NCBI GenBank assembly: GCA_963924565.1
Contig: OZ004608.1
Location: 5,518,001 to 5,582,000 of the forward strand
Source: Ascidiella aspersa
Taxonomy: Eukaryota
DNA: 64,000 bases
Direction of reading: 5' to 3'
Shown here in pieces: positions 12,897 through 62,323 of the stretch; positions within the stretch are counted from its first letter, which is position 1; the number at the start of each line of letters is the position of its first letter. The position numbers and the translations under genes are program-made. The notes beneath the pieces are model-generated. The model searched no databases. It was not told the origin of the DNA and was given only the letters and a program-made list of their open reading frames with translations.

Positions 12897-13517
12897 ATGG
12901 AGGAAGTCTGGCATTTCACCTGTTCCGTTGAGGGAATTCAATCGCGATACAAAAACGGAAACGAAGATTTTTACTCGGAGAAGGGAATGGTAGACGGAAC
13001 AATGTGGCATGTGGAGTTTGGGCCGGTTGACGACGACGACGAAAATGACGATTATGATGATAATCAGCTGGCTGGAACTTGTGGGTTGCTGAAGGTCTCA
13101 GACAGCCAGGCCATTCCGACTCATTGGGAAGACGCGAAATGGGCTGTGAAGCGTAATTTTAAAAAAGCTCGCTACATTGAAGAAAGTGAAAGCGAATTCG
13201 TGTCCGAATACAGCGATATAATGATGAAGAACATCGCCTTCACTCTTCGGGGCCAGGAAATGGAAACGCATTGCGGTTATGAAGAATCAAATGGCACTTG
13301 GGAGGTTGTGACGCATAGCGCGGTGACGCATTATGATGTTTCTGGTGAAGGTGTTCACGGTCTAATTACTTCGGCGAATGAAATTACTTTGAACCAAGCT
13401 GCCATCTACTTGGCCAAAACTTTTGGGCCTAGCTTGGTGAGATGGGTTAGCCGTTGCGTTAACCCCGGAGGGTGGAGATACTCTTGGTGGAAATCTTCGC
13501 TTAATAGAACACTTTAA
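12897..13517 (+). CDS. Array gene A1, unknown protein, 206 aa (stop read-through variant)
   Basis: First ATG at 12897; uninterrupted ORF; family TAG changed to TGG, adding 9 aa. Confidence 0.82.
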   Translation: MEEVWHFTCSVEGIQSRYKNGNEDFYSEKGMVDGTMWHVEFGPVDDDDENDDYDDNQLAGTCGLLKVSDSQAIPTHWEDAKWAVKRNFKKARYIEESESEFVSEYSDIMMKNIAFTLRGQEMETHCGYEESNGTWEVVTHSAVTHYDVSGEGVHGLITSANEITLNQAAIYLAKTFGPSLVRWVSRCVNPGGWRYSWWKSSLNRTL

Positions 13518-14326: not shown

Positions 14327-14913
14327 GGCAACGAAGCGTTGTACTCAGAAACCGGAATGAAGGACGGCGAAATGTGGCAGGTGAATTTTGGCCCAGTCGA
14401 CGTCAATGATGACGATGACAGTAAAGATAACGTAGACGATAACGTAGAGGATGACTTCGATGATGAAGTCGACGATGATGACCAGCTAGCTGGCGTTCGT
14501 AGATTGCTGAGGGTATCTGACCTCCAGGCCATTCCGACTCATTAGGAAAAGGTGGAATGGGCTGTGAAGCGAATTTTCACCGAAACTCGGTACATTAAAG
14601 AAAGTGAAAGCGAATTCGTGTCCAAATACAGCGATACAATGATGAAGAATATTGCCTTTATACTCAGGGGCGAAGGAATAGAAGAGTGCTGGAATGCTGT
14701 AGAGTGTAGACAGTATTGGTGATTTGAAAGTTGTGACGCAATTTCGCGTCAAGACGTATAGAAATTCTGGTAAATGCCAAGGCCTCATCACTTCAACTAG
14801 CGAGGTTACTTTTTATGAAGCTGCAACCTGCTTGGCCAATAAGTTCGGTCCTGATGTTGTGAGATGGTTAGGCCGTTGCACCGATCCTCAAATATGGCAA
14901 GATATCTTGGTAA
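14327..14913 (+). pseudogene. Array pseudogene P1
   Basis: Homology starts at GNE; TGG>TAG after AIPTH; several frameshifts. Confidence 0.88.
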
Positions 14914-17787
14914 AGATATTATGATTGCGCTATTGTGCATAATGTTTCTGCAATAATTATTCGGCGACGTCGATTGTGACTATACAATTTGACGCAATAG
15001 TAAAATACAAACCATATTTAATTTGTACGCTTTTGTATTGGTGTTTGTCTAAAATGTTTAATAAATAATCTTGCATAAGTAATCGTGCTCCTGAAATGAT
15101 TATTTATATTTGTTCGTTATGTGCTTCTTCAAATACTTAAAGAAAACCTTGCTTTTACGAAATTTAAATATAAAGATAACTGTTCACTTAACGTTTGCAT
15201 GTTTATCGCCTCGTCTGCGTGCTTAAGTATTTCTGCAATTGGATTTCGCATCTACAGCTTTTCACCACCTACTTTATAGCTGTGTATAACCACAAGTATA
15301 CAAAATCAGCTGATGTAGAATTACCGAACCGAGATAAAGTAAATAATTTATGAGATATGTGTGTTTGTTTTTTGTCGCATTATATATTCAAGTGTGTATC
15401 AATTGTAGCTGCTTAAACAATAAAATTGACTTGTTAAATCATCGTGATTGTTCTCATTCTGTAAGCTTTGTTTCCGGTCATGTCATAGTCATGTATAGTT
15501 ATAATTATATCGATTCATTGCGATTTATGAGGAAGCCTTGTAAATAGGGAAATTAAACTTAAGCCTCTTGCGTTACGGTGAGAAATTGTAAGAGGAATAT
15601 GGATGCCGATATATCCATTTTACCCATAGCTTCCAAACGTAGCGTGTAAACTAAATATAAAATTGTAACTAAATATAAGGTAACGCTAATGTAAATGACG
15701 TCATTTGACATGGAATAAGTTACTTATTCAGTACATTTTGCCCCAAAACTTGGGTATCAATATCGCAACCCACTACATACTATAAATAAAGGTAACCTCG
15801 CGATTGTTAATTCCATACCTATTTGCAAAAAAACCTACCCCAACAGTAACCCTACAACACATATACACAAGGTCTGTTGTCTGGCGTTCGCATAGCATGT
15901 AGCCATAGACATAAACTTACAGCTGTTAGCTTTGTGAAGCGTTTGCCGCTATTCAATTTATAAATAAATAAATAAATTTAATTCTGCCCCTTTAGATTCC
16001 ACGCTTTTTCTCATAAAGATATTCTTACATAAAGTTATTGAAATCAAAGTAAAATGATATTATAGTTACTGCAATAGTTAAAATTAGTATAGTTTATCTG
16101 TCCTTTTTTGCTCAAACTAGTTACTTCTTATTCAAGCCAATACGAAGTTATTTTTGTCATATTAACCTCCGCCTTACAAAATACCCTTTGACCCCGAGAT
16201 GAATATTTGTTTTATTACACAACGCAAGCATTCTTTCTTACGAGAGCAAGGTTTCGTCGTAAAACAAATAAAAGCTTTAACTATGTTGGTAATTTGCAAC
16301 TACTAGTCGTAAGCGATGGCTTATATAATTGCAATCTAAAAATCAAAAGACATTTAATTGCAATCTAAAAATAAACCGGGGATAAAAAGGATTATTAGAA
16401 GGTTGTTTGAATTTATGCATTTATTGAGAAATTGTCCGACTTTGTATAGGCGTAAATTGCAGACACGCAATTTTATTCTCAAACCTTTGGGTTTGCAGTC
16501 CACTAAATATTAGCGGCAAAATCCCTGCAAAACACGTTACAACTGTCCCTAGCAAACTGTATATAAGGCAATAGCCTAATTATCATTAATTTTGTAGTGG
16601 AATTTATCATTACTTTTTGTAGCACTTTTGTAGTGGAGTGTGCATTTTGGTCGCACGCGTACCCATTTTCCTATTTGTTACACATAAGTTATTTTTTAAA
16701 CTTACAAAACTTTCACGGCACGCAGTTTAAGAATAGCTGACTTTAAATGTCGTTTAACCACGTACTGATAGTAGTTCTTACAATAATTTGTTGGGGGCTT
16801 TTCGAATGTATAATATTGAAATGCTACTGATATAGGGTGTAAGCGAACAGGCGTATTCTGAGAATCACCAAATTCAACAAGTTTCTGCGGGCCACTGTGG
16901 CACTCTCGTACTTTACCACTGCCCCAAGACAAGGTTCTTTTTACCAACTATTACTCTATATTCGTGTATGTCGAACAACTGGAAATTATTTTTCCAAAGT
17001 TTGAGTAATTGAAAAGTAGCGCCAAACTAAATCGAACATTCGCATCTTATGCTTTAGCGCACTTTACTTGGATATAAGCATACTTAACCATATTGCACCT
17101 ACTCGCTATATTTCGACTAACATCAACAATTTCGTAGGTTTTTTGCATGAGATAACTCTCGTGACGTATGATTAAAACTTATAGTTGATTAATAAAAGTT
17201 GTTCTGTGCACTCACATAGTAAAACTAAATTGGTCGAAAACTATTTCGTAAGCCGTGAAATTATTAATTGACTCAACAACTTACACACGAAAGGCTGCAG
17301 AATTCGTAAGCGCTTCTAAAGTAACAATTCGAGTAGTTATAGGTTCAATTAGGATCGCTATAAGGCGGAATCGATTTTTTGTTGGGCAGCGATGTCAGAT
17401 GTTGACACACAGCCGCGACGTCATATATATATATAAGCAATACGACATCGTATATCGATTCAACAACGTTATACAGCCGAAAGACCATTTGTTAATAAAG
17501 CGGTTCTGTATATTTCAGTTCGACTGACAAAAATCTCGCATAAATCAGCTCATATTTGACAAATTAGCTGAAAACCGTTCTTAAAAATCCTGCTTGACGG
17601 TTCGAATCCCTGGTTTAAGCTTTGCATTTTCTTAGGCAGAAATGTTTTGCCTAGGTTATTTTAAGTCTTTTCTGGCTGCATTTATTTGGCTTTAACTCGC
17701 TCTACTATTTTAGTCATGCAGGAATTTTTCAATTGTTGAAAAAACACCATTTATTGGTTGATTGCTGCTGTTCCGATAAAGATAATA

Positions 17788-18381
17788 ATGGAAGAAGTGT
17801 GGCATTTCACCTTTCCTGTTGAGAGGATTCGACCGCAGTACGAAAACGGAAACGAAGATTTTTACTCGGAGAAGGGAATGGTAGACGGACAAATGTGGCA
17901 CGTGGAGTTTGGGCCGGTTGACGACGACGACGAAAATGACGATTATGATGATAATCAGCTGGCTGGAACTTGTGGGTTGCTGAAGGTCTCAGACAGCCAA
18001 CCCATTCCTTCTTACTGGAAAGACGCGAAATGGGCTGTGAAGCGAACTATCACCGGAGCTGAATCGATTGAAAACAGTGAAAGCGAATTCGTGCCCGAAT
18101 ACAGCGATATAATGATGAAGAACATCGCCTTCACCCTTCGGGGCCAAGGAATGGAAGAGTGCTGTAATGTTGAAGCCAGTATTGGCAGATTGCAGGTTGT
18201 TACGCATAGTGAGGTAAAGAAGTATGCTACTACCGGCAAAGGCGTACATGGTCTGATAAGTTCTGCAAATAAGGTTACTATGTACGAAGCTGCAACCTGC
18301 TTGGCCGATAAGTTCGGTTCTGGCGTTGTGAGATGGTTAGGCCGTTGCACCGATCCTGGAAGATGGCAGAATTCCTGGTAG
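17788..18381 (+). CDS. Array gene B1, unknown protein, 197 aa
   Basis: Intact ATG-TAG ORF, MEEVWHFTFPVERIR...PGRWQNSW. Confidence 0.85.
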   Translation: MEEVWHFTFPVERIRPQYENGNEDFYSEKGMVDGQMWHVEFGPVDDDDENDDYDDNQLAGTCGLLKVSDSQPIPSYWKDAKWAVKRTITGAESIENSESEFVPEYSDIMMKNIAFTLRGQGMEECCNVEASIGRLQVVTHSEVKKYATTGKGVHGLISSANKVTMYEAATCLADKFGSGVVRWLGRCTDPGRWQNSW

Positions 18382-19470
18382 CCGTATTAGAATTGTGATA
18401 TTGTGCATAATGTTCAAGCCAATTATTCGGCAACCTTGATTGTGATTATACCACTTTAATGCAATATTAAAACACAAACATTACTAATTTGAACCCTTTG
18501 TATTGCTTCGGTGTTCGCTACAGAAAAGAAAGCAGTAATTTGTTAGTGCACGTTAAAGAGCTTTTATCAATAAATTGAGGCGTTTTTAAAAGGTCATTAT
18601 TATTTGTTGCCAGAGCCGGACCCAGAGTGGCACGAGGTCACGACCCCCCAAACAATATTTTTGCTAATTTTACCACCTACAACCTAAGTGACAAAATAAA
18701 TAGTTTTATAGTTAAAATAAGTTATTCTGGTATTTATTTGTCTTACTTTCAGTAAATTATTCTTGCATAAGAAATCGTGCTCCTGTAATGATTATTCATA
18801 TTTGTTCGGTATGTGCTTCTTCAAATCACCAATGAAAACCTTGCTTTTACGAAATTTAAGTATAAAGATAATGCGCATTCAACGTTTGCATATTTATCGC
18901 CCCGTCTGCGTGCTTTAGTATTTTCGTAATTGGTTTTCGCATCTATAGCTTCTCACCACCTACTTTATAGCTGTGCATAACCACAGGTATACAAAATCAG
19001 GTGATGTAGAATTACCGAACCGAGATAAAGTAAATAAATCATATGATGTGTGTGTTTGTGTTTCGTCGCATTATATATTCAAGTGTGTATCAATTGTAGC
19101 TGCTTAAACAATAAAATTTAATTGTTAAATTATCGTGATTGTAAATTTAATTCAAAAAATTGTAACTTAATATACGTTAACGCTAATGTAAAATGACGCC
19201 ATTTAACATGGAATCAGCTAGTCTTAAACTGTGTGCCGTGGAAGTTTTGTAAGTTTGAAAAATAACTAATGTGTAACACATAGGAAAATAGGCAAGCATG
19301 TGAGACTAAATGCAACACTATCCATTACAAAATTAATGATAATTAGGCTATTGCCTTATATACAGTTTGTTAGGGACAGTGGTAACGTGTTTTGCGGGGA
19401 TTTTGCCGCTAATATTTTAGTGGACTGCAAACCAAAAGGTTTGAGAATAAAATTGCGTGTCTGCAAATTT

Positions 19471-20057
19471 GGCAACGAAGCGTTGTACTCAGAAACCGGA
19501 ATGAAGGACGGCGAAATGTGGCAGGTGAATTTTGGCCCAGTCGACGTTAATGATGACGATGACAGTAAAGATAACGTAGACGATAACGTAGAGGATGACT
19601 TCGATGATGAAGTCGACGATGATGACCAGCTAGCTGGCGTTCGTAGATTGCTGATGATATCTGACCTCCAGGCCATTCCGACTCATTAGGAAGAGGTGGA
19701 ATGGGCTGTGAAGCGAATTTTCACCGAAACTCGGTACATTAAAGAAAATGAAAGCGAATTCGTGTCCAAATACAGCGATACAATGATGAAGAATATTGCC
19801 TTTACACTTAGGGGCGAAGGAATAGAAGAGTTCTGCAATGCTGTAGTGTAGACAGTATTGGTGATTTGAAAGTTGTGACGCAATTTCGCGTCAAGACGTA
19901 TAGAAATTCTGGTAAATGCTTCCACGGCCTCATCACTTCAACTAGCGAGGTTACTTTTCATGAAGCTGCAACCTGCTTGGCCGAAAAGTTCGGTCCTGAT
20001 GTTGTGAGATGGTTAGTCCGTTGCACCGATCCTCAAATATGGCAAGATTCTTGGTAA
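19471..20057 (+). pseudogene. Array pseudogene P2
   Basis: Same 5' truncation and premature TAG as P1; +5 frameshift at ctgtagtgtagac. Confidence 0.88.
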
Positions 20058-22747: not shown

Positions 22748-23341
22748 ATGGAGAAAATGTGGCATTTTACCTTTCCTGTTCAGAGGATTCTACGGCGATA
22801 CGAAAACGGAAACGAAGAATTGTACTCGAAATGCGGGATGCTAGACGGAACAATGTGGTACGTGGAGTTTGGGCCGGTTGCCAGTGATACCCACCTGGCT
22901 GGAAATTGTGGATTGCTGAAGGTGTCAGCCAACCCGAACGGCCAACCCGAACCCATTCCGTCTTGTTGGAATGAAGTGGATTGTGCTCTTAAGAGAATAT
23001 TCACAGAAGCTCACGACACGGAAAATAAAGTAGTTGCATTCCGATCTGAATACAGCCCTACAATGAAGAAGAATATTGCCTTCACACTTCGGGGCCAGGG
23101 AATGGAAAAGTTCTGCGGTCGTGAAGAAACATATGTAGGATCAAATGGCTCTTGGGAGGTTGAGACGCATGGCGCGGTGACGCATTATGATTATTCTGGT
23201 AAAGGTGTTCACGGTCTAATTACTTCGGCGAATGGAATCGATTTGAACGAAGCTGCCAGCTACTTGACCAGCAAGTTCCCTGGCTTGGTGAGATGGGTTA
23301 GCCGTTGCGTTAACCCCGAAGGGTGGCAATACTCTTGGTAG
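22748..23341 (+). CDS. Array gene C1, unknown protein, 197 aa
   Basis: Intact ORF MEKMWHFTFPVQRIL...PEGWQYSW. Confidence 0.85.
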   Translation: MEKMWHFTFPVQRILRRYENGNEELYSKCGMLDGTMWYVEFGPVASDTHLAGNCGLLKVSANPNGQPEPIPSCWNEVDCALKRIFTEAHDTENKVVAFRSEYSPTMKKNIAFTLRGQGMEKFCGREETYVGSNGSWEVETHGAVTHYDYSGKGVHGLITSANGIDLNEAASYLTSKFPGLVRWVSRCVNPEGWQYSW

Positions 23342-25822: not shown

Positions 25823-26416
25823 ATGGAGGAAGTCTGGCATTTCACCTGTTCCGTTGAGGGGATTCGATCGCGATACAAAAACGGAAACGAAGATTTTTAC
25901 TCGGAGAAGGGAATGGAAGACGGAACAATGTGGCACGTGGAGTTTGGGCCGGTTGACGACGACGACGAAAATGGCGACTATGATGATAATCAGCTGGCTG
26001 GAACTTGTGGATTGCTGAAGGTCTCAGACAGCCAGGCCATTCCTTCTTACTGGAAAGACGCGAAATGGGCTGTGAAGCGAACTATCACCGGAGCTGAATC
26101 GATTGAAGAAAGTGAAAGCGAATTCGTGTCCGAATACAGCGCTACAATGATGAAGAACATCGCCTTCACTCTTCGGGGCCAGGAAATGGAAACGCATTGC
26201 GGTTATGAAGAATCCAATGGCACTTGGGAGGTTGAGACGCATGTGGAGGTGACGCATTATGATGATACTGGTGAATGTGTTCACGGTCTAATTACTTCGG
26301 CGAATGAAATTACTTTGAACCAAGCTGCCATCTACTTGGCCAAAACTTTTGGGCCTGGCTTGGTGAGATGGGTTAGCCGTTGCGTTAAACCCGGAGGGTG
26401 GAGATACTCTTGGTAG
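25823..26416 (+). CDS. Array gene A2, unknown protein, 197 aa
   Basis: Intact ORF MEEVWHFTCSVEGIR...PGGWRYSW. Confidence 0.85.
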   Translation: MEEVWHFTCSVEGIRSRYKNGNEDFYSEKGMEDGTMWHVEFGPVDDDDENGDYDDNQLAGTCGLLKVSDSQAIPSYWKDAKWAVKRTITGAESIEESESEFVSEYSATMMKNIAFTLRGQEMETHCGYEESNGTWEVETHVEVTHYDDTGECVHGLITSANEITLNQAAIYLAKTFGPGLVRWVSRCVKPGGWRYSW

Positions 26417-27629
26417 CAATCTTCGCTTAATACAACACTTTAATTCGCTGATCTTTAATATTTCCCTTTTAACGCAATATTGAAACACATGCGATTAACA
26501 ATGTTTATCAGTATTGTTTGTTTCTGTCTATTGGTTAACAAATAATCTTACCTAATCGTGCTCCTGTAATGATTATTCATATTTTGTCGTTATGTGCTTC
26601 TTAAAATACCTAACGAAAATCATTCTTCAACGAAATTTCAATATAAAGATAACTGCGCATTCAACGTTTATATGTTTATCGCCTCGTCTGCGTGCTTTTC
26701 TATGTTCGTAATTGGTTTTCGCATCTATAGCTTTTCACCACCTACACTATAGCTGTGTATAACCACAAGTATACAAAATCAGGTGATGTTGAATTACCGA
26801 ACCGAGATGAAGTAAATATTTCATATGATGTGTGTGTTTGTTTTTTGTCGCATTATATATTCAAGTGTGTATCAATTGTAGCTGCTTAAACAATAAAATG
26901 TAATTGTTAAATTATCGTGATTGTAAATTTAATTCAAAAAATTGTAACTTAATATACGTTAACGCTAATGTAAAATGACGTCATTTAACATGGAATCAGC
27001 TAGTCTTAAAATGTGTGCCGTGGAAGTTTTGTAAGTTTGAAAAATAACAAATGTGTAACACATAGGAAAATAGGCAAGCATGTGAGACTAAATGCACACT
27101 ATCCATTACAAAATTAATGATAATTAGGCTATTGCCTTATATACAGTTTGTTAGGGACAGTTGTAACGTGTTTTGCGGGGATTTTGCCGCTAATATTTTA
27201 GTGGACTGCAAACCAAAAGGTTTGAGAATAAAATTGCGTGTCTGCAAATTTGGCAACGAAGCGTTGTACTCAGAAACCGGAATGAAGGACGGCGAAATGT
27301 GGCAGGTGAATTTTGGCCCAGTCGACGTCAATGATGACGATGACAGTAAAGATAACGTAGACGATAACGTAGAGGATGACTTCGATGATGAAGTCGACGA
27401 TGATGACCAACTAGTTGGAATTTGTAGATTGCTGATGATATCTGACCTCCAGGCCATTCCGACTCATTAGGAAGAGGTGGAATGGGCTGTGAAGCGAATT
27501 TTCACCGAAACTCGGTACATTAAAGAAAGTGAAAGCGAATTCGTGTCCAAATACAGCGATACAATGATGAAGAATATTGCCTTTATACTCAGGGGCGAAG
27601 GAATAGAAGAGTTCTGCAATGCTGTAGAG

Positions 27630-29464
27630 CAGTGTTTCTTAACCTTTTTCACCCCAGGGCGCACCTGTAAACCTTTCGAAACGTGGCGGTGCACCTGACG
27701 AGCGAGTCGACTGCTAACTTTGTTTTTTGCTGGCAGTTTTTATTACATCAGGCTCCCAATTCTATTATATATTAAACAGCTTGCGGAGTCGGTTAAAAAT
27801 AACCCGACTCCAACTCCCGAATCCGACTCCGGCCAAATGTGTGATTTCGTCAAATTCCGAGTCCGTCTGCAAACCTACAGCATTTAATTTTCCCATTTAC
27901 GTAACTAAATTAAGGTGGATTTTCAACAATCCCTTCATAGGGGTGTTATATCTCATCCAACCACAATACATTGCTGGAAAATATCCACGATATGCTATTT
28001 CGCCATTTTAATTTGCATTTGGCGGCATTATTAGTTCAAAAATTGGCACTGCGCACGTCGGACTCGGGACTCGGGACTCCATCAGTCCGATTTCAGCAAA
28101 ATAAATCGATTACAGTACGCCGAGTCTCAAAAACTACACTGACCTGCTATAAAATACGATGTGCTCAATAAGACATAACCTAAAAAGAAAGAAAATAAAT
28201 GAAATAGGCCATTCATGTTGTAAATTATGAAAACATACCGTATGTTAGTTAAAGTTCGATGGAAACACAGAATAAGCCCCAAGAGCAACAACATCTAACT
28301 CGGAATAAATCCAAAATGTAACGGAAAAAAACTAATAATGCCCAAAACTGTAAAAAAAACAGGGTATGGGACGATTAAAGGACATATTCTTGGCATCGGC
28401 CGTTTTTGTGCCATAGTGTTAGGGCACAGGATTGTTTGCCTCTGTTTGGGGTTAGGCGCGAGTAATGGGTAGAATTATAATTTGGGGGGAGTTTGTATTG
28501 AAGTTATGGGTGGGGTTTGGGTAGGGTTCCTCTTTTCCCCACATTTTTTTACACCCGGGAAACGGGATTGACAAATGAAACTTCCCGGGAATCCTGACGA
28601 AATTTTCGTGCCCTAATTACGTCATTATGATGATTAAAATTACTTTATATTAGCTCCAAACGTTTAATTAAGCTCATTTATGTTCTGTAGTATTGCTTCT
28701 GCAATCTTACAAGACGTTCTCGTATTAACGTCAGCACCCTTATTTGTTTTTTTTAGAAAACACGCGCATATTAGGCGTTTTTTTATTGGTAAAATAAATT
28801 TAATTACGTTTTTCCGCTGGTAAGCGCAAAAAAAGCAACTCAAGCAACGACTTTAATAGGTTTGGCAACATTTTTTTCTTTATATTAGTCAAAAACGATA
28901 ATTTTTTTTAAGTTTTGCTATGTTGCCGAATAACCGGGATTATAAAAAAAATTTCCCGGGATTCGGGATCGTTATTTCGCGGGAAAGCCCGGGAATTTCC
29001 CGTCGAAACATTCCCGGAGAGGAACCCTAGGTTTGGGGTTAAGTAAAAGGTAGGAAAGGCCTTATTCTTGCCATTTAGGCCTTATTCGGACGAATTGAGG
29101 TCTTATTTTGATTTAAACGCTATTACGAGTATTAGGTATTAGTCCTATTTTGGTCTTACTCCGAACTGTTTTATATGTCGAAGTAGCTGTTGCTTTAATT
29201 GTGGTCTTAAGGCGGAAGCCCCACTAGATTGCAATAGTTCCTCTTTTTTTGTTAGCTAAGAGCCAACATCAACCATTGGCACTTCAATAAGGGCTACGAA
29301 TCCAGTCATATTGCTCAGTGTTTATTCACAGAAAATAGTGACTAGAGTTTATTCTAAAATTATTCGCAAATTCTACAAATAATACAGAATTTTTGTAACA
29401 TTTTTTCCCATTTTCTCGCGGTGCACCTGGCCACCTTCCACGGCGCACCGGTTGAGAAACGCTG
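27630..29464. mobile_element. Non-autonomous composite hAT element, 1835 bp
   Basis: TIRs cagtgtttcttaacc / ggttgagaaacgctg; exact 8-bp TSD CTGTAGAG; empty site visible in P1. Confidence 0.92.
28522..29029. mobile_element. Nested hAT MITE with TAGGG termini, 508 bp
   Basis: TIRs tagggttcctct / agaggaacccta; exact 8-bp TSD GGTTTGGG; subterminal CCCGGGA motifs. Confidence 0.9.
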
Positions 29465-32451
29465 CTGTAGAGTGTAGACAGTGTTGGTGATTTGAAAGTT
29501 GTGACGCAATTTCGCGTCAAGACGTATAGAAATTCTGGTAAATGCTTCCACGTCCTCATCACTTCAACTATAGAGGTTACTTTTTATGAAGCTGCAACCT
29601 GCTTGGCCGAAAAGTTCGGTCCTGATGTTGTAAGATGGTTAGGCCGTTGCACCGATCCTCAAATATGGCAAGATTCTTGGCAAAGATATTATGATTGCGC
29701 TATTGTGCATAATGTTTCTGCAATAATTATTCGGCGACGTCGATTGTGACTATACAATTTGACGCAATAGTAAAATACAAACCATATTTAATTTGTACGC
29801 TTTTGTATTGGTGCTCGCTACAGAAAAAATGCAGCAAATTGAGAGTACACAATGCAACTAAGAGAAGTTTTTGGCAATAAAATGGGGACGTTTTTAAAAT
29901 GTCATCAATATTTGTGGCCAGAGCCGGATCTAGGCACGGGACCATGGTCCCCAAACTATATATTTTGCTAATTTTAACTATACCTAAGTAAAAAAACAAA
30001 TAGTTTTAGTATGTATAGCCCATTTTAAGGGTAACTTTGCAGACTTCCTTGAGGTATGACGTCACAAATTTCATCATAACGTGACGTCATAAAACATTTA
30101 ACCTTAGAAAAGCTGTTTTTTTCTAGCGCACAATCCTTCGCCCAAATGGAGCTGTAATACAGTCCAATAGGTTAATGGTATAGCAAAGGGTAAAAAAAAA
30201 CTATACGTTACGCATAAAGCACATAAAAAAGAGTCTTGCATATGTTCCGAAACAAAGGAATTTATCGTACAATTTAGCAAAAAATACGCTTTACGAAGTT
30301 TATGAGCGACACGATGCAACATACGACGAGCCAAATTCCAAGTGGGCTAAAAAGATTTTCGAAAAATGGACGAAAACGTTGTAACATGGATAGATGCTTG
30401 CCAAACGTTTTTGTAATACCGTGATAAAAGTAAAAATATATAAGAATCTATTTTGTGGGCATGGCCCTATGGCTCCACCTCTCTTGATTAGCGCCAGACA
30501 CTTTCAAAGGACTCGTGTGAAGTTTCAAAGTGCTTAGTGTTCAACCGCTTTAAATATGCCGTATTCAACACCGGCAACCAATAAACAGCTATTTCAAATC
30601 AAGGGGAAGTTGCTACGTAACCTCACGTGACTGCTCTTAAAACCGCCTATTGGCTGGAATAGGCGTCATTTCGGAGGTCACGCGTACCTCGTGCCACTTG
30701 ATAACGTTAAAGAGAACGCTGACTATAAAGAAGGGCATACTCAATAAGACCTACAAGGCAACAATATCTAAAGCGGAATAGTCTTTAATACCGTAGTTTT
30801 ACGACCAACGACATAATAAAGCCAAATACAAAGTAATATCCATGACAGAATAAGATCTAAATCGTCTAAAAATTATCCACGCCAGATATACATACGTGTG
30901 TTTTTAAATAAACATATATTACATATCCATAATAAAGCCACATATAGCAATATCCACGACAGAATAAGATCTAAATCGTCTAAAATTCCAACCGTCAAAC
31001 ATCTCCCAACCGACAATTAAACCGCCACTGTGGTATCTTTTCACATCTAGGAAGACAATACCCTAGTAACCTGGTCATACAAGTACTTACAGAAGGCAAA
31101 TTTATATGTCGTCCACATTCCCAATGTTTCGAGAAATTCCTATTCCCTAACTTTTATCGCTTTGGCACGTTTGTCGTCCTTAAATTAAGTTCTACCCATG
31201 ACTGATTTTTTAAATACGTCAACAGTCGAACAAAAAACATCTAACAACCATCCATTAGTAGCGCACGTTTAATTCGCGAAAGCGAATGATCCTTATAATA
31301 TTGTTTTTGTGCAAATAAAAACAAAATGCTGCGCCAAAGTTTTGGTAATTGTTTCGAGAAAGTCGTTTGTGGGGACAACTTGGCAAACATTTCACTATGC
31401 ACATTCAGTAACCAGATTTTACTCCGCATTTGTCCAAAGATACAGCGTAATATATCTGCTAACAATTAACTCATTAATATCTGCGGAAGTCTTGTTGCGT
31501 ATGCATAGACGCGTTTCCTGTAGGTGTATGCAAGTATAATTACGTTAAGTAAGAACACTAGCCCTATTCTATATACTGGTTTACGTTTAATCATATGAAT
31601 TTGATAGTCATTTATTTTTTTGTATTAAAGTAGATTATAGTCTCTGCGTGCGCACCAGGCATAGACGTGTTTGCTGTACGTTAATAAATAGATAATACAT
31701 GTGACGTATCTATTTTTTGTTTGTATCATATTCTGGTTTTCTAAACGATATTGTTCGAGTTTCTTAAGACTCATGCAGCCATCATTACCTTATGAAATCG
31801 TGGTAAAATATTACTAAATATGGTGTAATAGGGACAATTAGTGTGTGTTTTCGCAGTTGAAACAGTTTGTCTAGACTTTTCTGTCTTGGTAATAGGAAGT
31901 CATTTGTAAGTTCCACTGGTTCATGAAGTATATTTCGCCACAAAACACGGCATCATCAGTCTCTTAATGAAATACAATTTATTTGAAATTTATAGCTTCT
32001 ATTCGAATAAGAGACTGTTGTCTTATTTTGTTGCGAAATATATTTCTCTTTTAAGCGATTAAAACTTATAAATGACTGACGTTGACCAAGACAGGAAAGT
32101 CTACTCTAAAGAAGAGTTGCTTCCATTTGAAGTCGTCATTTATTTGTAAGGGCGACGAGACATCTTCATATTTTACACAATCAGTTTGCCATTGATACAG
32201 TTATGGTTGCCTTTAAAACGAGGTAAAGCGCTTAGCAATGTCAAAACAGGGCCCCATTCGGTTTAAATACCTGGTTTAAGCTTTGCGTGTTCTTATAGTC
32301 ACAATCTTTTTACCTGAATTATTTACGTATTTTCTTGCTGCATTTATTTGGCTTTAACTCGCTCCACTATTTTGGTCAGACAGGTATTTTCCAATTGTTT
32401 GAAAAAAACAGCTTTTATTGATTGTTTGCTGCTGTTCCGATAAAGATAAAA

Positions 32452-33045
32452 ATGGAGAAAATGTGGCATTTTACCTTTCCTGTTCAGAGGATTCTACGGC
32501 GATACGAAAACGGAAACGAAGAATTGTACTCGAAATGCGGGATGCTAGACGGAACAATGTGGTACGTGGAGTTTGGGCCGGTTGCCAGTGATACCCACCT
32601 GGCTGGAAATTGTGGATTGCTGAAGGTGTCAGCCAACCCGAACGGCCAACCCGAACCCATTCCGTCTTGTTGGAATGAAGTGGATTGTGCTCTTAAGAGA
32701 ATATTCACAGAAGCTCACGACACGGAAAATAAAGTAGTTGCATTCCGATCTGAATACAGCCCTACAATGAAGAAGAATATTGCCTTCACACTTCGGGGCC
32801 AGGGAATGGAAAAGTTCTGCGGTCGTGAAGAAACATATGTAGGATCAAATGGCTCTTGGGAGGTTGAGACGCATGGCGCGGTGACGCATTATGATTATTC
32901 TGGTAAAGGTGTTCACGGTCTAATTACTTCGGCGAATGGAATCGATTTGAACGAAGCTGCCAGCTACTTGACCAGCAAGTTCCCTGGCTTGGTGAGATGG
33001 GTTAGCCGTTGCGTTAACCCCGAAGGGTGGCAATACTCTTGGTAG
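32452..33045 (+). CDS. Array gene C2, 197 aa
   Basis: Protein identical to C1. Confidence 0.85.
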   Translation: MEKMWHFTFPVQRILRRYENGNEELYSKCGMLDGTMWYVEFGPVASDTHLAGNCGLLKVSANPNGQPEPIPSCWNEVDCALKRIFTEAHDTENKVVAFRSEYSPTMKKNIAFTLRGQGMEKFCGREETYVGSNGSWEVETHGAVTHYDYSGKGVHGLITSANGIDLNEAASYLTSKFPGLVRWVSRCVNPEGWQYSW

Positions 33046-37736: not shown

Positions 37737-38330
37737 ATGGAGGAAGTCTGGCATTTCACCTGTTCCGTTGAGGGGATTCGATCGCGATACAAAAACGGAA
37801 ACGAAGATTTTTACTCGGAGAAGGGAATGGAAGACGGAACAATGTGGCACGTGGAGTTTGGGCCGGTTGACGACGACGACGAAAATGGCGACTATGATGA
37901 TAATCAGCTGGCTGGAACTTGTGGATTGCTGAAGGTCTCAGACAGCCAGGCCATTCCTTCTTACTGGAAAGACGCGAAATGGGCTGTGAAGCGAACTATC
38001 ACCGAAGCTGACTCGATTGAAAAAAGTGAAAGCGAATTCGTGTCCGAATACAGCGATATAATGATGAAGAATATCGCCTTCACTCTTCGGGGCCAAGGAA
38101 TGGAAGAGTGCTGTAATGTTGAAGCCAGTATTGGCAGATTGCAGGTTGTTACGCATAGTGAGGTAAAGAAGTATGCTACTACCGGCAAAGGCGTACATGG
38201 TCTCATAAGTTCTGCAAATAAGGTTACTATGTACGAAGCTGCAACCTGCTTGGCCGATAAGTTCGGTTCTGGCGTTGTGAGATGGTTAGGCCGTTGCACC
38301 GATCCTGGAAGATGGCAGAATTCCTGGTAG
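37737..38330 (+). CDS. Array gene AB, chimera with A-type N half and B-type C half, 197 aa
   Basis: N half matches A2 (TCSVEGIRSRYK, ENGDYDD); sequence after IAFTLRGQ matches B1. Confidence 0.85.
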   Translation: MEEVWHFTCSVEGIRSRYKNGNEDFYSEKGMEDGTMWHVEFGPVDDDDENGDYDDNQLAGTCGLLKVSDSQAIPSYWKDAKWAVKRTITEADSIEKSESEFVSEYSDIMMKNIAFTLRGQGMEECCNVEASIGRLQVVTHSEVKKYATTGKGVHGLISSANKVTMYEAATCLADKFGSGVVRWLGRCTDPGRWQNSW

Positions 38331-41709: not shown

Positions 41710-42303
41710 ATGGAGGAAGTCTGGCATTTCACCTGTTCCGTTGAGGGGATTCGATCGCGATACAAAAACGGAAACGAAGATTTTTACTCGGAGAAGGGAA
41801 TGGAAGACGGAACAATGTGGCACGTGGAGTTTGGGCCGGTTGACGACGACGACGAAAATGACGATTATGATGATAATCAGCTGGCTGGAACTTGTGGGTT
41901 GCTGAAGGTCTCAGACAGCCAGGCCATTCCTTCTTACTGGAAAGACGCGAAATGGGCTGTGAAGCGAACTATCACCGGAGCTGAATCGATTGAAGAAAGT
42001 GAAAGCGAATTCGTGTCCGAATACAGCGATACAATGATGAAGAACATCGCCTTCACTCTTCGGGGCCAGGAAATGGAAACGCATTGCGGTTATGAAGAAT
42101 CAAATGGCACTTGGGAGGTTGAGACGCATGTGGAGGTGACGCATTATGATGATACTGGTGAAGGTGTTCACGGTCTAATTACTTCGGCGAATGAAATTAC
42201 TTTGAACCAAGCTGCCATCTACTTGGCCAAAACTTTTGGGCCTGGCTTGGTGAGATGGGTTAGCCGTTGCGTTAAACCCGGAGGGTGGAGATACTCTTGG
42301 TAG
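41710..42303 (+). CDS. Array gene A3, 197 aa
   Basis: Intact ORF; 3 aa differences from A2. Confidence 0.85.
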   Translation: MEEVWHFTCSVEGIRSRYKNGNEDFYSEKGMEDGTMWHVEFGPVDDDDENDDYDDNQLAGTCGLLKVSDSQAIPSYWKDAKWAVKRTITGAESIEESESEFVSEYSDTMMKNIAFTLRGQEMETHCGYEESNGTWEVETHVEVTHYDDTGEGVHGLITSANEITLNQAAIYLAKTFGPGLVRWVSRCVKPGGWRYSW

Positions 42304-43516
42304 CAATCTTCGCTTAATACAACACTTTAATTCGCTGATCTTTAATATTTCCCTTTTAACGCAATATTGAAACACATGCGATTAACAATGTTTATCAGTA
42401 TTGTTTGTTTCTGTCTATTGGTTAACAAATAATCTTACCTAATCGTGCTCCTGTAATGATTATTCATATTTTGTCGTTATGTGCTTCTTAAAATACCTAA
42501 CGAAAATCATTCTTCAACGAAATTTCAATATAAAGATAACTGCGCATTCAACGTTTATATGTTTATCGCCTCGTCTGCGTGCTTTTCTATGTTCGTAATT
42601 GGTTTTCGCATCTATAGCTTTTCACCACCTACACTATAGCTGTGTATAACCACAAGTATACAAAATCAGGTGATGTTGAATTACCGAACCGAGATGAAGT
42701 AAATATTTCATATGATGTGTGTGTTTGTTTTTTGTCGCATTATATATTCAAGTGTGTATCAATTGTAGCTGCTTAAACAATAAAATGTAATTGTTAAATT
42801 ATCGTGATTGTAAATTTAATTCAAAAAATTGTAACTTAATATACGTTAATGCTAATGTAAAATGACGTCATTTAACATGGAATCAGCTAGTCTTAAAATG
42901 TGTGCCGTGGAAGTTTTGTAAGTTTGAAAAATAACAAATGTGTAACACATAGGAAAATAGGCAAGCATGTGAGACTAAATGCACACTATCCATTACAAAA
43001 TTAATGATAATTAGGCTATTGCCTTATATACAGTTTGTTAGGGACAGTTGTAACGTGTTTTGCGGGGATTTTGCCGCTAATATTTTAGTGGACTGCAAAC
43101 CAAAAGGTTTGAGAATAAAATTGCGTGTCTGCAAATTTGGCAACGAAGCGTTGTACTCAGAAACCGGAATGAAGGACGGCGAAATGTGGCAGGTGAATTT
43201 TGGCCCAGTCGACGTCAATGATGACGATGACAGTAAAGATAACGTAGACGATAACGTAGAGGATGACTTCGATGATGAAGTCGACGATGATGACCAACTA
43301 GTTGGAATTTGTAGATTGCTGATGATATCTGACCTCCAGGCCATTCCGACTCATTAGGAAAAGGTGGAATGGGCTGTGAAGCGAATTTTCACCGAAACTC
43401 GGTACATTAAAGAAAGTGAAAGCGAATTCGTGTCCAAATACAGCGATACAATGATGAAGAATATTGCCTTTATACTCAGGGGCGAAGGAATAGAAGAGTT
43501 CTGCAATGCTGTAGAG

Positions 43517-45351
43517 CAGTGTTTCTTAACCTTTTTCACCCCAGGGCGCACCTGTAAACCTTTCGAAACGTGGCGGCGCACCTGACGAGCGAGTCGACTG
43601 CTAACTTTGTTTTTTGCTGGCAGTTTTTATTACATCAGGCTCCCAATTCTATTATATATTAAACAGCTTGCGGAGTCGGTTAAAAATAACCCGACTCCAA
43701 CTCCCGAATCCGACTCCGGCCAAATGTGTGATTTCGTCAAATTCCGAGTCCGTCTGCAAACCTACAGCATTTAATTTTCCCATTTACGTAACTAAATTAA
43801 GGTGGATTTTCAACAATCCCTTCATAGGGGTGTTATATCTCATCCAACCACAATACATTGCTGGAAAATATCCACGATATGCTATTTCGCCATTTTAATT
43901 TGCATTTGGCGGCATTATTAGTTCAAAAATTGGCACTGCGCACGTCGGACTCGGGACTCGGGACTCCATCAGTCCGATTTCAGCAAAATAAATCGATTAC
44001 AGTACGCCGAGTCTCAAAAACTACACTGACCTGCTATAAAATACGATGTGCTCAATAAGACATAACCTAAAAAGAAAGAAAATAAATGAAATAGGCCATT
44101 CATGTTGTAAATTATGAAAACATACCGTATGTTAGTTAAAGTTCGATGGAAACACAGAATAAGCCCCAAGAGCAACAACATCTAACTCGGAATAAATCCA
44201 AAATGTAACGGAAAAAAACTAATAATGCCCAAAACTGTAAAAAAAACAGGGTATGGGACGATTAAAGGACATATTCTTGGCATCGGCCGTTTTTGTGCCA
44301 TAGTGTTAGGGCACAGGATTGTTTGCCTCTGTTTGGGGTTAGGCGCGAGTAATGGGTAGAATTATAATTTGGGGGGAGTTTGTATTGAAGTTATGGGTGG
44401 GGTTTGGGTAGGGTTCCTCTTTTCCCCACATTTTTTTACACCCGGGAAACGGGATTGACAAATGAAACTTCCCGGGAATCCTGACGAAATTTTCGTGCCC
44501 TAATTACGTCATTATGATGATTAAAATTACTTTATATTAGCTCCAAACGTTTAATTAAGCTCATTTATGTTCTGTAGTATTGCTTCTGCAATCTTACAAG
44601 ACGTTCTCGTATTAACGTCAGCACCCTTATTTGTTTTTTTTAGAAAACACGCGCATATTAGGCGTTTTTTTATTGGTAAAATAAATTTAATTACGTTTTT
44701 CCGCTGGTAAGCGCAAAAAAAGCAACTCAAGCAACGACTTTAATAGGTTTGGCAACATTTTTTTCTTTATATTAGTCAAAAACGATAATTTTTTTTAAGT
44801 TTTGCTATGTTGCCGAATAACCGGGATTATAAAAAAAATTTCCCGGGATTCGGGATCGTTATTTCGCGGGAAAGCCCGGGAATTTCCCGTCGAAACATTC
44901 CCGGAGAGGAACCCTAGGTTTGGGGTTAAGTAAAAGGTAGGAAAGGCCTTATTCTTGCCATTTAGGCCTTATTCGGACGAATTGAGGTCTTATTTTGATT
45001 TAAACGCTATTACGAGTATTAGGTATTAGTCCTATTTTGGTCTTACTCCGAACTGTTTTATATGTCGAAGTAGCTGTTGCTTTAATTGTGGTCTTAAGGC
45101 GGAAGCCCCACTAGATTGCAATAGTTCCTCTTTCTTTGTTAGCTAAGAGCCAACATCAACCATTGGCACTTCAATAAGGGCTACGAATCCAGTCATATTG
45201 CTCAGTGTTTATTCACAGAAAATAGTGACTAGAGTTTATTCTAAAATTATTCGCAAATTCTACAAATAATACAGAATTTTTGTAACATTTTTTCCCTTTT
45301 TCTCGCGGTGCACCTGGCCACCTTCCACGGCGCACCGGTTGAGAAACGCTG
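43517..45351. mobile_element. Duplicate of the 1835-bp hAT element
   Basis: Same TIRs, same TSD CTGTAGAG and same site, so copied by segmental duplication. Confidence 0.92.
44409..44916. mobile_element. Duplicate nested TAGGG-terminus MITE
   Basis: Same TIRs and TSD GGTTTGGG. Confidence 0.9.
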
Positions 45352-48337
45352 CTGTAGAGTGTAGACAGTGTTGGTGATTTGAAAGTTGTGACGCAATTTC
45401 GCGTCAAGACGTATAGAAATTCTGGTAAATGCTTCCACGTCCTCATCACTTCAACTATAGAGGTTACTTTTTATGAAGCTGCAACCTGCTTGGCCGAAAA
45501 GTTCGGTCCTGATGTTGTAAGATGGTTAGGCCGTTGCACCGATCCTCAAATATGGCAAGATTCTTGGCAAAGATATTATGATTGCGCTATTGTGCATAAT
45601 GTTTCTGCAATAATTATTCGGCGACGTCGATTGTGACTATACAATTTGACGCAATAGTAAAATACAAACCATATTTAATTTGTACGCTTTTGTATTGGTG
45701 CTCGCTACAGAAAAAATGCAGCAAATTGAGAGTACACAATGCAACTAAGAGAAGTTTTTGGCAATAAAATGGGGACGTTTTTAAAATGTCATCAATATTT
45801 GTGGCCAGAGCCGGATCTAGGCACGGGACCATGGTCCCCAAACTATATATTTTGCTAATTTTAACTATACCTAAGTAAAAAAACAAATAGTTTTAGTATG
45901 TATAGCCCATTTTAAGGGTAACTTTGCAGACTTCCTTGAGGTATGACGTCACAAATTTCATCATAACGTGACGTCATAAAACATTTAACCTTAGAAAAGC
46001 TGTTTTTTTCTAGCGCACAATCCTTCGCCCAAATGGAGCTGTAATACAGTCCAATAGGTTAATGGTATAGCAAAGGGTAAAAAAAAACTATACGTTACGC
46101 ATAAAGCACATAAAAAAGAGTCTTGCATATGTTCCGAAACAAAGGAATTTATCGTACAATTTAGCAAAAAATACACTTTACGAAGTTTATGAGCGACACG
46201 ATGCAACATACGACGAGCCAAATTCCAAGTGGGCTAAAAAGATTTTCGAAAAATGGACGAAAACGTTGTAACATGGATAGATGCTTGCCAAACGTTTTTG
46301 TAATACCGTGATAAAAGTAAAAATATATAAGAATCTATTTTGTGGGCATGGCCCTATGGCTCCACCTCTCTTGATTAGCGCCAGACACTTTCAAAGGACT
46401 CGTGTGAAGTTTCAAAGTGCTTAGTGTTCAACCGCTTTAAATATGCCGTATTCAACACCGGCAACCAATAAACAGCTATTTCAAATCAAGGGGAAGTTGC
46501 TACGTAACCTCACGTGACTGCTCTTAAAACCGCCTATTGGCTGGAATAGGCGTCATTTCGGAGGTCACGCGTACCTCGTGCCACTTGATAACGTTAAAGA
46601 GAACGCTGACTATAAAGAAGGGCATACTCAATAAGACCTACAAGGCAACAATATCTAAAGCGGAATAGTCTTTAATACCGTAGTTTTACGACCAACGACA
46701 TAATAAAGCCAAATACAAAGTAATATCCATGACAGAATAAGATCTAAATCGTCTAAAAATTATCCACGCCAGATATACATACGTGTGTTTTTAAATAAAC
46801 ATATATTACATATCCATAATAAAGCCACATATAGCAATATCCACGACAGAATAAGATCTAAATCGTCTAAAATTCCAACCGTCAAACATCTCCCAACCGA
46901 CAATTAAACCGCCACTGTGGTATCTTTTCACATCTAGGAAGACAATACCCTAGTAACCTGGTCATACAAGTACTTACAGAAGGCAAATTTATATGTCGCG
47001 ACATTCCCAATGTTTCGAGAAATTCCTATTCCCTAACTTTTATCGCTTTGGCACGTTTGTCGTCCTTAAATTAAGTTCTACCCATGACTGATTTTTTAAA
47101 TACGTCAACAGTCGAACAAAAAACATCTAACAACCATCCATTAGTAGCGCACGTTTAATTCGCGAAAGCGAATGATCCTTATAATATTGTTTTTGTGCAA
47201 ATAAAAACAAAATGCTGCGCCAAAGTTTTGGTAATTGTTTCGAGAAAGTCGTTTGTGGGGACAACTTGGCAAACATTTCACTATGCACATTCAGTAACCA
47301 GATTTTACTCCGCATTTGTCCAAAGATACAGCGTAATATATCTGCTAACAATTAACTCATTAATATCTGCGGAAGTCTTGTTGCGTATGCATAGACGCGT
47401 TTCCTGTAGGTGTATGCAAGTATAATTACGTTAAGTAAGAACACTAGCCCTATTCTATATACTGGTTTACGTTTAATCATATGAATTTGATAGTCATTTA
47501 TTTTTTTGTATTAAAGTAGATTATAGTCTCTGCGTGCGCACCAGGCATAGACGTGTTTGCTGTACGTTAATAAATAGATAATACATGTGACGTATCTATT
47601 TTTTGTTTGTATCATATTCTGGTTTTCTAAACGATATTGTTCGAGTTTCTTAAGACTCATGCAGCCATCATTACCTTATGAAATCGTGGTAAAATATTAC
47701 TAAATATGGTGTAATAGGGACAATTAGTGTGTGTTTTCGCAGTTGAAACAGTTTGTCTAGACTTTTCTGTCTTGGTAATAGGAAGTCATTTGTAAGTTCC
47801 ACTGGTTCATGAAGTATATTTCGCCACAAAACACGGCATCATCAGTCTCTTAATGAAATACAATTTATTTGAAATTTATAGCTTCTATTCGAATAAGAGA
47901 CTGTTGTCTTATTTTGTTGCGAAATATATTTCTCTTTTAAGCGATTAAAACTTATAAATGACTGACGTTGACCAAGACAGGAAAGTCTACTCTAAAGAAG
48001 AGTTGCTTCCATTTGAAGTCGTCATTTATTTGTAAGGGCGACGAGACATCTTCATATTTTACACAATCAGTTTGCCATTGATACAGTTATGGTTGCCTTT
48101 AAAACGAGGTAAAGCGCTTAGCAATGTCAAAACAGGGCCCCATTCGGTTTAAATACCTGGTTTAAGCTTTGCGTGTTCTTATAGTCACAATCTTTTTACC
48201 TGAATTATTTACGTATTTTCTTGCTGCATTTATTTGGCTTTAACTCGCTCCACTATTTTGGTCAGACAGGTATTTTCCAATTGTTTGAAAAAAACAGCTT
48301 TTATTGATTGTTTGCTGCTGTTCCGATAAAGATAAAA

Positions 48338-48931
48338 ATGGAGAAAATGTGGCATTTTACCTTTCCTGTTCAGAGGATTCTACGGCGATACGAAAACGGA
48401 AACGAAGAATTGTACTCGAAATGCGGGATGCTAGACGGAACAATGTGGTACGTGGAGTTTGGGCCGGTTGCCAGTGATACCCACCTGGCTGGAAATTGTG
48501 GATTGCTGAAGGTGTCAGCCAACCCGAACGGCCAACCCGAACCCATTCCGTCTTGTTGGAATGAAGTGGATTGTGCTCTTAAGAGAATATTCACAGAAGC
48601 TCACGACACGGAAAATAAAGTAGTTGCATTCCGATCTGAATACAGCCCTACAATGAAGAAGAATATTGCCTTCACACTTCGGGGCCAGGGAATGGAAAAG
48701 TTCTGCGGTCGTGAAGAAACATATGTAGGATCAAATGGCTCTTGGGAGGTTGAGACGCATGGCGCGGTGACGCATTATGATTATTCTGGTAAAGGTGTTC
48801 ACGGTCTAATTACTTCGGCGAATGGAATCGATTTGAACGAAGCTGCCATCTACTTGACCAGCAAGTTCCCTGGCTTGGTGAGATGGGTTAGCCGTTGCGT
48901 TAACCCCGAAGGGTGGCAATACTCTTGGTAG
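48338..48931 (+). CDS. Array gene C3, 197 aa
   Basis: As C1 except AASYL>AAIYL. Confidence 0.85.
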   Translation: MEKMWHFTFPVQRILRRYENGNEELYSKCGMLDGTMWYVEFGPVASDTHLAGNCGLLKVSANPNGQPEPIPSCWNEVDCALKRIFTEAHDTENKVVAFRSEYSPTMKKNIAFTLRGQGMEKFCGREETYVGSNGSWEVETHGAVTHYDYSGKGVHGLITSANGIDLNEAAIYLTSKFPGLVRWVSRCVNPEGWQYSW

Positions 48932-51823: not shown

Positions 51824-52417
51824 ATGGAAGAAGTGTGGCATTTCACCTTTCCTGTTGAGAGGATTCGACCGCAGTACGAAAACGGAAACGAAGATTTTTA
51901 CTCGGAGAAGGGAATGGTAGACGGACAAATGTGGCACGTGGAGTTTGGGCCGGTTGACGACGACGACGAAAATGACGATTATGATGATAATCAGCTGGCT
52001 GGAACTTGTGGGTTGCTGAAGGTCTCAGACAGCCAACCCATTCCTTCTTACTGGAAAGACGCGAAATGGGCTGTGAAGCGAACTATCACCGGAGCTGAAT
52101 CGATTGAAAAAAGTGAAAGCGAATTCGTGCCCGAATACAGCGATATAATGATGAAGAACATCGCCTTCACCCTTCGGGGCCAAGGAATGGAAGAGTGCTG
52201 TAATGTTGAAGCCAGTATTGGCAGATTGCAGGTTGTTACGCATAGTGAGGTAAAGAAGTATGCTACTACCGGCAAAGGCGTACATGGTCTGATAAGTTCT
52301 GCAAATAAGGTTACTATGTACGAAGCTGCAACCTGCTTGGCCGATAAGTTCGGTTCTGGCGTTGTGAGATGGTTAGGCCGTTGCACCGATCCTGGAAGAT
52401 GGCAGAATTCCTGGTAG
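51824..52417 (+). CDS. Array gene B2, 197 aa
   Basis: As B1 except SIENS>SIEKS. Confidence 0.85.
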   Translation: MEEVWHFTFPVERIRPQYENGNEDFYSEKGMVDGQMWHVEFGPVDDDDENDDYDDNQLAGTCGLLKVSDSQPIPSYWKDAKWAVKRTITGAESIEKSESEFVPEYSDIMMKNIAFTLRGQGMEECCNVEASIGRLQVVTHSEVKKYATTGKGVHGLISSANKVTMYEAATCLADKFGSGVVRWLGRCTDPGRWQNSW

Positions 52418-53506: not shown

Positions 53507-54092
53507 GGCAACGAAGCGTTGTACTCAGAAACCGGAATGAAGGACGGCGAAATGTGGCAGGTGAATTTTGGCCCAGTCGACGTCAATGATGACGATGACG
53601 TTAAAGATAACGTAGACGATAACGTAGAGGATGACTTCGATGATGAAGTCGACGATGATGACCAACTAGCTGGCTTTGTAGATTGCTGAGGATATCTGAC
53701 CTCCAGGCCATTCCGACTCATTAGGAAAAGGTGGAATGGGCTGTGAAGCGAATTTTCACCGAAACTCGGTACATTAAAGAAAGTGAAAGCGAATTCGTGT
53801 CCAAATACAGCGATACAATGATGAAGAATATTGCCTTTACACTTAGGGGCGAAGGAATAGAAGAGTGCTGCAATGCTGTAGTGTAGACAGTATTGGTGAT
53901 TTGAAAGTTGTGACGCAATTTCGCGTCAAGACGTATAGAAATTCGTGTAAATGCTTCCACGGCCTCATCACTTCAACTAGCGAGGTTACTTTTCATGAAG
54001 CTGCAACCTGCTTGGCCGAAAAGTTCGGTCCTGATGTTGTGAGATGGTTAGTCCGTTGCACCGATCCTCAAATATGGCAAGATTCTTGGTAA
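53507..54092 (+). pseudogene. Array pseudogene P5
   Basis: 5' truncation, premature TAG, extra frameshifts. Confidence 0.88.
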
Positions 54093-56782: not shown

Positions 56783-57355
56783 ATGCAGGAAGTGTGGCCT
56801 TTCGCCTTTCCCGTTCAGACGATTATACCGCGATACGAAAACGGAAACGAAGAATTGTACTCGGAATGCGGGATGGAAGACAGACAAATGTGGTACGTGG
56901 AGTTTGGGCCTGCATATCTCAGTACTGGTACCCATCTGGCTGGAAATTGTGGATTGCGGAGGGTGTCAGACGGTCAACCCATTCCGTCTCGTTGGAATGA
57001 CGTGGATAGGGCTCTTCAGAGAATATTCACAGGAGCTTACGACACGGAAAATGAAGTAGTTGCATTCCGATCTGATTACAGCGATACAATGATGAAGAAT
57101 ATTGCCTTCACACTTCGGGGCCAGGGAATGGAACAGTGCTGCGGTTATGTAGACTCAAATGGCTCTTGGGAGCTTGAGACGCATGGCGCGGTGACGCATT
57201 ATGATGATACTGGTGTAGGTGTTCACGGTCTAATTACTTCGGCGAATGAAATCGCTTTGAACGAAGCTGCCATCTACTTGACCAGCAAGTTCCCTGGCTT
57301 GGTGAGATGGGTTAGCCGTTGCGTTAACCCCGAAGGGTGGCAATACTCTTGGTAG
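56783..57355 (+). CDS. Array gene D, divergent C-like paralog, 190 aa
   Basis: Intact ORF MQEVWPFAFPVQTII...PEGWQYSW within C-type flanks. Confidence 0.85.
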   Translation: MQEVWPFAFPVQTIIPRYENGNEELYSECGMEDRQMWYVEFGPAYLSTGTHLAGNCGLRRVSDGQPIPSRWNDVDRALQRIFTGAYDTENEVVAFRSDYSDTMMKNIAFTLRGQGMEQCCGYVDSNGSWELETHGAVTHYDDTGVGVHGLITSANEIALNEAAIYLTSKFPGLVRWVSRCVNPEGWQYSW

Positions 57356-61921: not shown

Positions 61922-62323
61922 GGCAACGAAGCGTTGTACTCAGAAACCGGAATGAAGGACGGCGAAATGGGCTGTGAAGCGAATTTTCACCGAAACTCGG
62001 TACATTAAAGAAAGTGAAAGCGAATTCGTGTCCAAATACAGCGATACAATGATGAAGAATATTGCCTTTATACTCAGGGGCGAAGGAATAGAAGAGTGCT
62101 GCAATGCTGTAGTGTAGACAGTATTGGTGATTTGAAAGTTGTGACGCAATTTCGCGTCAAGACGTATAGAAATTCTGGTAAATGCTTCCACGGCCTCATC
62201 ACTTCAACTAGCGAGGTTACTTTTCATGAAGCTGCAACCTGCTTGGCCGAAAAGTTCGGTCCTGATGTTGTGAGATGGTTAGTCCGTTGCACCGATCCTC
62301 AAATATGGCAAGATTCTTGGTAA
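61922..62323 (+). pseudogene. Array pseudogene P6 with ~185-bp internal deletion
   Basis: ggcgaaatg joined to ggctgtgaag, removing the acidic loop; +5 frameshift retained. Confidence 0.88.

Follow-up and report, generated by a model that had tools for sequence, protein, structure and literature searches.

Rep-type HUH genes in eukaryotic genomes include the Replitrons, which are Rep-type HUH transposons of plants, algae and protists (excerpts of PMC10288648), and endogenous circovirus or other CRESS (circular Rep-encoding single-stranded DNA) elements (PMC6069186 and PMC6186406). Here we analyse a gene at 17788-18381 on the plus strand of a 64,000-nucleotide stretch of the Ascidiella aspersa genome (contig OZ004608.1, positions 5,518,001 to 5,582,000; the window), whose family may belong with them. 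Like these elements, it would be a Rep-type HUH gene in a eukaryotic genome; however, it has no detectable Rep sequence similarity, its catalysis is lost, its domain is seemingly doubled and the gene is clustered. In a literature search that left subscription papers and supplements outside its scope, we found no description of a Rep form that is doubled, dead and amplified in tandem.

The origin-binding/nuclease domain of pMV158 RepB (Rep_2; 8amu, 3dkx) is 10% identical to this protein, which differs in having neither the first His, the Tyr nor the oligomerisation domain, in having a preceding second domain, and in lying in an animal chromosomal array. The endonuclease domains of CRESS Reps (nanovirus 6h8o; circovirus 8h56, 2hw0 and 7kii; vientovirus 9pqf; crucivirus A0A1S6LVI5) have the same predicted strand and helix order, with alignments that end at the catalytic helix at 9-20% identity. 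Unlike CRESS Reps, the protein comes without catalytic residues, superfamily 3 (SF3) helicase, capsid gene or origin, and carries two domains in one chain. The origin-binding domain of SV40 large T and the DNA-binding domain of papillomavirus E1 (4gdf, 1r9w) are not known to nick; they belong to viral initiators fused to helicases, whereas here we see a stand-alone host protein. Both are relatives of RepB (excerpts of PMC4753449). We tentatively read the gene as one of a tandem, transcribed host family whose two alpha/beta domains come from a duplicated, dead Rep domain and which is likely a non-cutting binder of single-stranded DNA, a reading that we hold at slightly less than even probability.

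Predicted fold and putative Rep-equivalent positions

The AlphaFold model of the 197-residue protein (predicted local distance difference test 89.8, predicted template modelling score 0.86) has two alpha/beta domains in which helices of 11-12 residues pack against sheets; alpha/beta plaits are matched by each half. The elements of the protein lie in the window as follows.

17788..18102, plus strand: residues 1-105, N-terminal domain of alpha/beta type; highly acidic, with a net charge of -18 over residues 1-110
17917..17952, plus strand: Asp-rich loop, about residues 44-55; found in one subfamily only (family alignment)
18103..18378, plus strand: C-terminal domain, residues 106-197; predicted HUH/Rep-like fold (structure searches)
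18121..18138, plus strand: putative equivalent of the Rep motif I strand, residues 112-117; aligned to pMV158-family motif I; conserved (entropy 0.52), with the last strand among the best-conserved elements
18241..18252, plus strand: putative equivalent of the Rep motif II strand, residues 152-155; the first metal-ligand position is not a His
18328..18348, plus strand: last strand, residues 181-187; most conserved element, entropy 0.46
18373..18375, plus strand: residue 196 (Ser), in the position of the catalytic Tyr of Reps; a stop ends the frame two codons on

In three structure searches the C half (106-197) was closer to HUH/Rep nuclease domains than to other folds; the C domain is predicted to have a Rep nuclease fold. 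A reading of the DNA made beforehand from its letters (the sequence-only reading) had proposed two tandem HUH/Rep folds. We find the two alpha/beta domains and the Rep-like C half; the N half, however, has a similar alpha/beta topology but best matches that are not Reps. None of the structure-match scores reaches a conventional significance bar. The main alternative is a lineage-specific cellular protein that binds proteins or small ligands through two generic ferredoxin-like (alpha/beta-plait) domains, with a Rep likeness that reflects a common fold. We consider it possible but rather unlikely, since nine of the top 50 chains among 48,161 are Rep or origin-binding proteins from several families, and since the RepB and PCV2 alignments run through the final helix to the Tyr position, while matches to generic folds mostly break off at 186-192. 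The silence of sequence comparison argues little for generic domains, as true Rep families can also miss one another by profile (probability 2.7% for pMV158-type versus circovirus-type, against 36% and 94% for the others); kinship can therefore be neither established nor dismissed on low scores.

Such scores are what we observe. The family has no significant match in Pfam, PHROGs, PDB sequences, viral contigs or prokaryote genomes, and none of 21 members matches Pfam families of the Viral_Rep, Gemini_AL1 or Rep_2 type at E values up to 10. Rep sets were collected by motif scans that kept 94 of 105 circovirus-type (CRESS, from viral contigs), 34 of 66 pMV158-type and 23 of 115 geminivirus-type open frames, after frames without the motif and near-duplicates were dropped; the sets are biased, since a frame had to show motif I or II to be picked up. 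Local profile matches to Reps on motif II have a probability of 3.5% for the N half (2 of 60 shuffles reach it) and 0.3% for the C half (24 of 60), and the C half matches the pMV158-type profile at 17% (0 of 60 shuffles) with only motif I in register.

The motif spacing is as the sequence-only reading had stated, with 37 residues from F115 to G152 and 44 from G152 to S196. The first is the commonest value in CRESS Reps (31 of 94). The second compares with 37-42 in 89 of the 90 CRESS Reps with motif III found (one has 50); 34 Reps of the pMV158 family span 39-46, and 22 of geminivirus type have 46. The Tyr site is placed by the alignment end points, where residue 197 falls on RepB 100 and PCV2 97, next to RepB Y99 and PCV2 Y96. 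In Reps the fourth strand forms a motif that bridges single-stranded DNA (excerpts of PMC7826260), and from the order of elements the last strand, 181-187, is likely its equivalent.

The catalytic residues are altered, as had been claimed. The first His is absent at position 152 in all 21 members (Gly in 13), with His at position 154 in 15 of 21, and this copy has Asn195-Ser196 in place of the Tyr. Position 196 is Tyr in one of 21 members, an outside relative (P0001), and position 195 in nine, for which a one-residue shift is possible. The claim that Gly replaces the first His in each half is borne out for the C half. For the N half, the 3.5% match to the Rep profile would set motif II at residues 57-60, three earlier than had been proposed, with His at 57 in 2 of 21 members and Ala at 59 in 18. 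The motif II pattern His-hydrophobic-His/Gln is kept in neither half. In the window and loci L011-L030 we found no Walker A motif in any frame of at least 60 residues, and no origin nonanucleotide in a stem of at least six pairs. The protein has no oligomerisation or SF3 helicase domain, the stop following residue 197, and the catalytic residues and helicase motif of active HUH transposases (Replitron or Helitron) were not found in it. Because first His, Tyr, helicase and viral context are all missing, the protein is not a working Rep and the locus is not a provirus.

The two halves had also been said to echo each other. In sequence they do not do so above chance: their local alignment score of 19 lies below the mean of 23.7 for shuffles, 17% of shuffles reach their global score, and their profile-profile probability is at most 1.1%. 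The echo is supported at the level of the fold, where seven solved chains (5ez7, 2hzm, 4czd, 6yxx, 2n76, 4oi3, 6h8o) match the C half and, folded alone, the N half with nearly the same range of each chain. Whether an internal duplication produced the two domains is, in our judgement, evenly balanced.

The tandem array, its selection and its transcription

The gene belongs to a large tandem array, on which the sequence-only reading was silent. A family search of the 308-Mb genome gave 47 matches, of which 46 fall in C2:5.40-5.60 Mb and the remaining one on C4, with at least 23 full-length open copies (11 in the window, 11 elsewhere on C2 and 1 on C4). A single GH6 exon in this genome, which only just passes its cut-off, points to a tunicate, as a GH6-like domain on animal cellulose synthase is characteristic of tunicates. 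The cluster forms two arms on opposite strands that face apart across a gap of about 45 kb (C2:5.40-5.49 versus 5.53-5.58 Mb). In the window we count 11 intact and 6 broken copies, every one of them on the plus strand, and identity between copies ranges from complete to about 30%. Besides the gene itself, these are the following.

12897..13517, plus strand: intact paralogue, 71% identical
22748..23341, plus strand: intact paralogue, 53%
25823..26416, plus strand: intact paralogue, 74%
32452..33045, plus strand: intact paralogue, 53%
37737..38330, plus strand: intact paralogue, mosaic, 93%
41710..42303, plus strand: intact paralogue, 76%
48338..48931, plus strand: intact paralogue, 53%
51824..52417, plus strand: intact paralogue, 99.5%
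56783..57355, plus strand: intact paralogue, 55%
60239..60832, plus strand: intact paralogue, protein identical
14327..14903, plus strand: broken copy that lacks its 5′ part and has an in-frame stop and a frameshift
19471..20054, plus strand: broken copy
27252..29680, plus strand: broken copy, interrupted by about 1.8 kb of other DNA
43139..45567, plus strand: broken copy, interrupted by about 1.8 kb of other DNA
53507..54089, plus strand: broken copy
61922..62320, plus strand: broken copy, internal deletion

The C-terminal third of the protein occurs in two types that are exchanged between copies. These array dynamics suggest a role in defence. A Rep-derived RNA- or DNA-binding regulator with no part in defence is decidedly unlikely, as core regulators seldom duplicate rapidly, leave pseudogenes and exchange their C-terminal third between copies. 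The same grade applies to its variant in which a Rep-derived C domain was joined to an N domain of unrelated origin; both draw on the fact that the fold evidence sits mainly in residues 106-197, but the same templates fit both halves, which argues against the fusion.

A 9.7-kb segment is duplicated at 99.5% identity (window 25378-35104 versus 41265-50989), and reflects either a very recent event or an assembly-duplicated haplotype; the assembly could therefore inflate the exact copy count. The inserts of about 1.8 kb at 27620-29480 and 43507-45367 interrupt two broken copies at the same place and probably stem from a mobile element that was already present when the duplication took place. Copies of the N-terminal domain alone lie at L016:3509-3805, L017:8294-8590 (minus) and L027:2083-2406 (plus), with no C half found behind any of the three; they could be single-domain products or relics.

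Outside this genome we found only two relatives, P0001 (31%, E 1e-16) and P0002 (29%, E 1e-5), which separate from the 19 host copies in a tree that is unrooted and has long branches. The P0001 contig is gene-poor and eukaryote-like, and P0001 ends shortly past the same final Trp. Among the 19 host copies, the ratio of nonsynonymous to synonymous rates (dN/dS, Nei-Gojobori; distant pairs are near saturation) is 0.52-0.57 where dS exceeds 0.3 (109 pairs) and 0.73-0.76 in 62 closer pairs; the family is under purifying selection. We therefore regard as very improbable a decaying HUH transposon (Replitron- or Helitron-like) or endogenous CRESS virus that was passively multiplied by segmental duplication and has no function in the host. 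The single coding exon, the many broken copies, the near-identical 5-11 kb duplications and the ratio among close pairs would fit such an element. It is opposed by the number of full-length copies that stay open, even where identity has dropped to about 30%, by the lower ratio over the distant pairs, by the length, domain layout and 5′ acceptor kept in a relative from another source (P0001), and by a region without Walker A motif or origin stem-loop.

The open reading frame of 197 codons is intact in a single coding exon and is present as the sequence-only reading gave it, along with all ten peptides quoted there. Two further elements flank it.

17714..17721, plus strand: likely acceptor for splicing or trans-splicing, within the 5′ untranslated region and 66 bases before the ATG; conserved (G/A)CAG-G
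18466..18471, plus strand: possible polyadenylation signal ATTAAA; sense reads fade by 18499

The acceptor is identical in 11 of 11 window copies and in L013, L026 and L031, and changed in L027 and L030; the same kind of acceptor precedes the P0001 ATG. Because an in-frame stop lies between the acceptor AG (17720-17721) and the ATG, an upstream coding exon cannot join there and the 197-residue protein is probably complete. RNA evidence comes from about 6% of one run, in which 44 reads cover 17732-18499 (7 of 44 at least 99% identical); their first mates map to the minus strand, as is usual for plus-strand RNA. Sense reads begin in the bin after the acceptor, and no splice joint was seen there among the reads of this run. 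The family thus shows low-level sense transcription, from which the reads do not single out this exact copy. Further reads at 17284-17539 and 15041-15407 derive from repeats and have loose ends that do not match the sequence here; those at 17284-17539 run opposite to the gene with many differences and therefore come from other loci.

Several neighbours were noted, some by eye. Exons resembling a G-protein-coupled receptor (by eye; window 1461-1871, plus strand, and L022:5410-5760) are duplicated between the two arms, and a fragment at window 7063-7542 (minus) looks, by eye, like the GIY-YIG end of a Penelope-type retroelement. Amid the minus-strand arm lie duplicated protein-kinase exons (L011:551-922, L014:6457-6828 on the minus strand, L021:2210-2554) and, by eye, GBP/atlastin-type GTPase-like exons with a membrane tail (L016:8339-8806, L018:5122-5589, L021:7668-8132). 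If the kinase and GBP/atlastin-type exons are confirmed, the region would be an immune-type cluster. Seven tandem MATH-domain exon matches, likely of meprin type, occupy C2:5123084-5238838. A diverged MATH/TRAF domain, suggested by eye from the first 65 residues, whose strands fall in register with the host USP7 MATH domain, and by this exon cluster 160-280 kb from the array, is barely credible, as the USP7 alignment has a probability of 0.2%, the model packs helices on sheets in plait-like halves rather than forming an eight-stranded beta-sandwich, and a MATH_2 genome scan returned none of these genes.

Proposed origin and function

Under the dead-Rep reading, an animal lineage would have captured an ancestral HUH Rep nuclease domain from a CRESS virus or rolling-circle plasmid, a source that we hold to be fairly probable. 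The domain would then have been duplicated within one gene, with both halves losing catalysis. By analogy with the SV40 and papillomavirus origin-binding domains, the C domain (net charge +4 in this copy) may bind single-stranded DNA without cutting it, via the conserved last strand, and the acidic N domain (net -18) may serve for protein contact or DNA mimicry. A decoy of this kind could occupy viral origins or viral Rep without nicking, a role that we put forward as unlikely. Marine invertebrates host many CRESS-DNA viruses, and the restriction of these is little understood. The proposal in full, quite unlikely as a whole, is that a captured, doubled and dead Rep became a fast-evolving array of intracellular decoys against the origins or Rep of single-stranded DNA viruses, a family of restriction factors made from the virus's own initiator.

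If true, this multigene family of the host, with its dead and doubled Rep fold, would offer a restriction candidate open to direct testing, and HUH folds would be open to domestication beyond the reach of sequence searches. Even if the domains were generic plaits, this would be an unnamed, expanded and selected family with a confident predicted structure.
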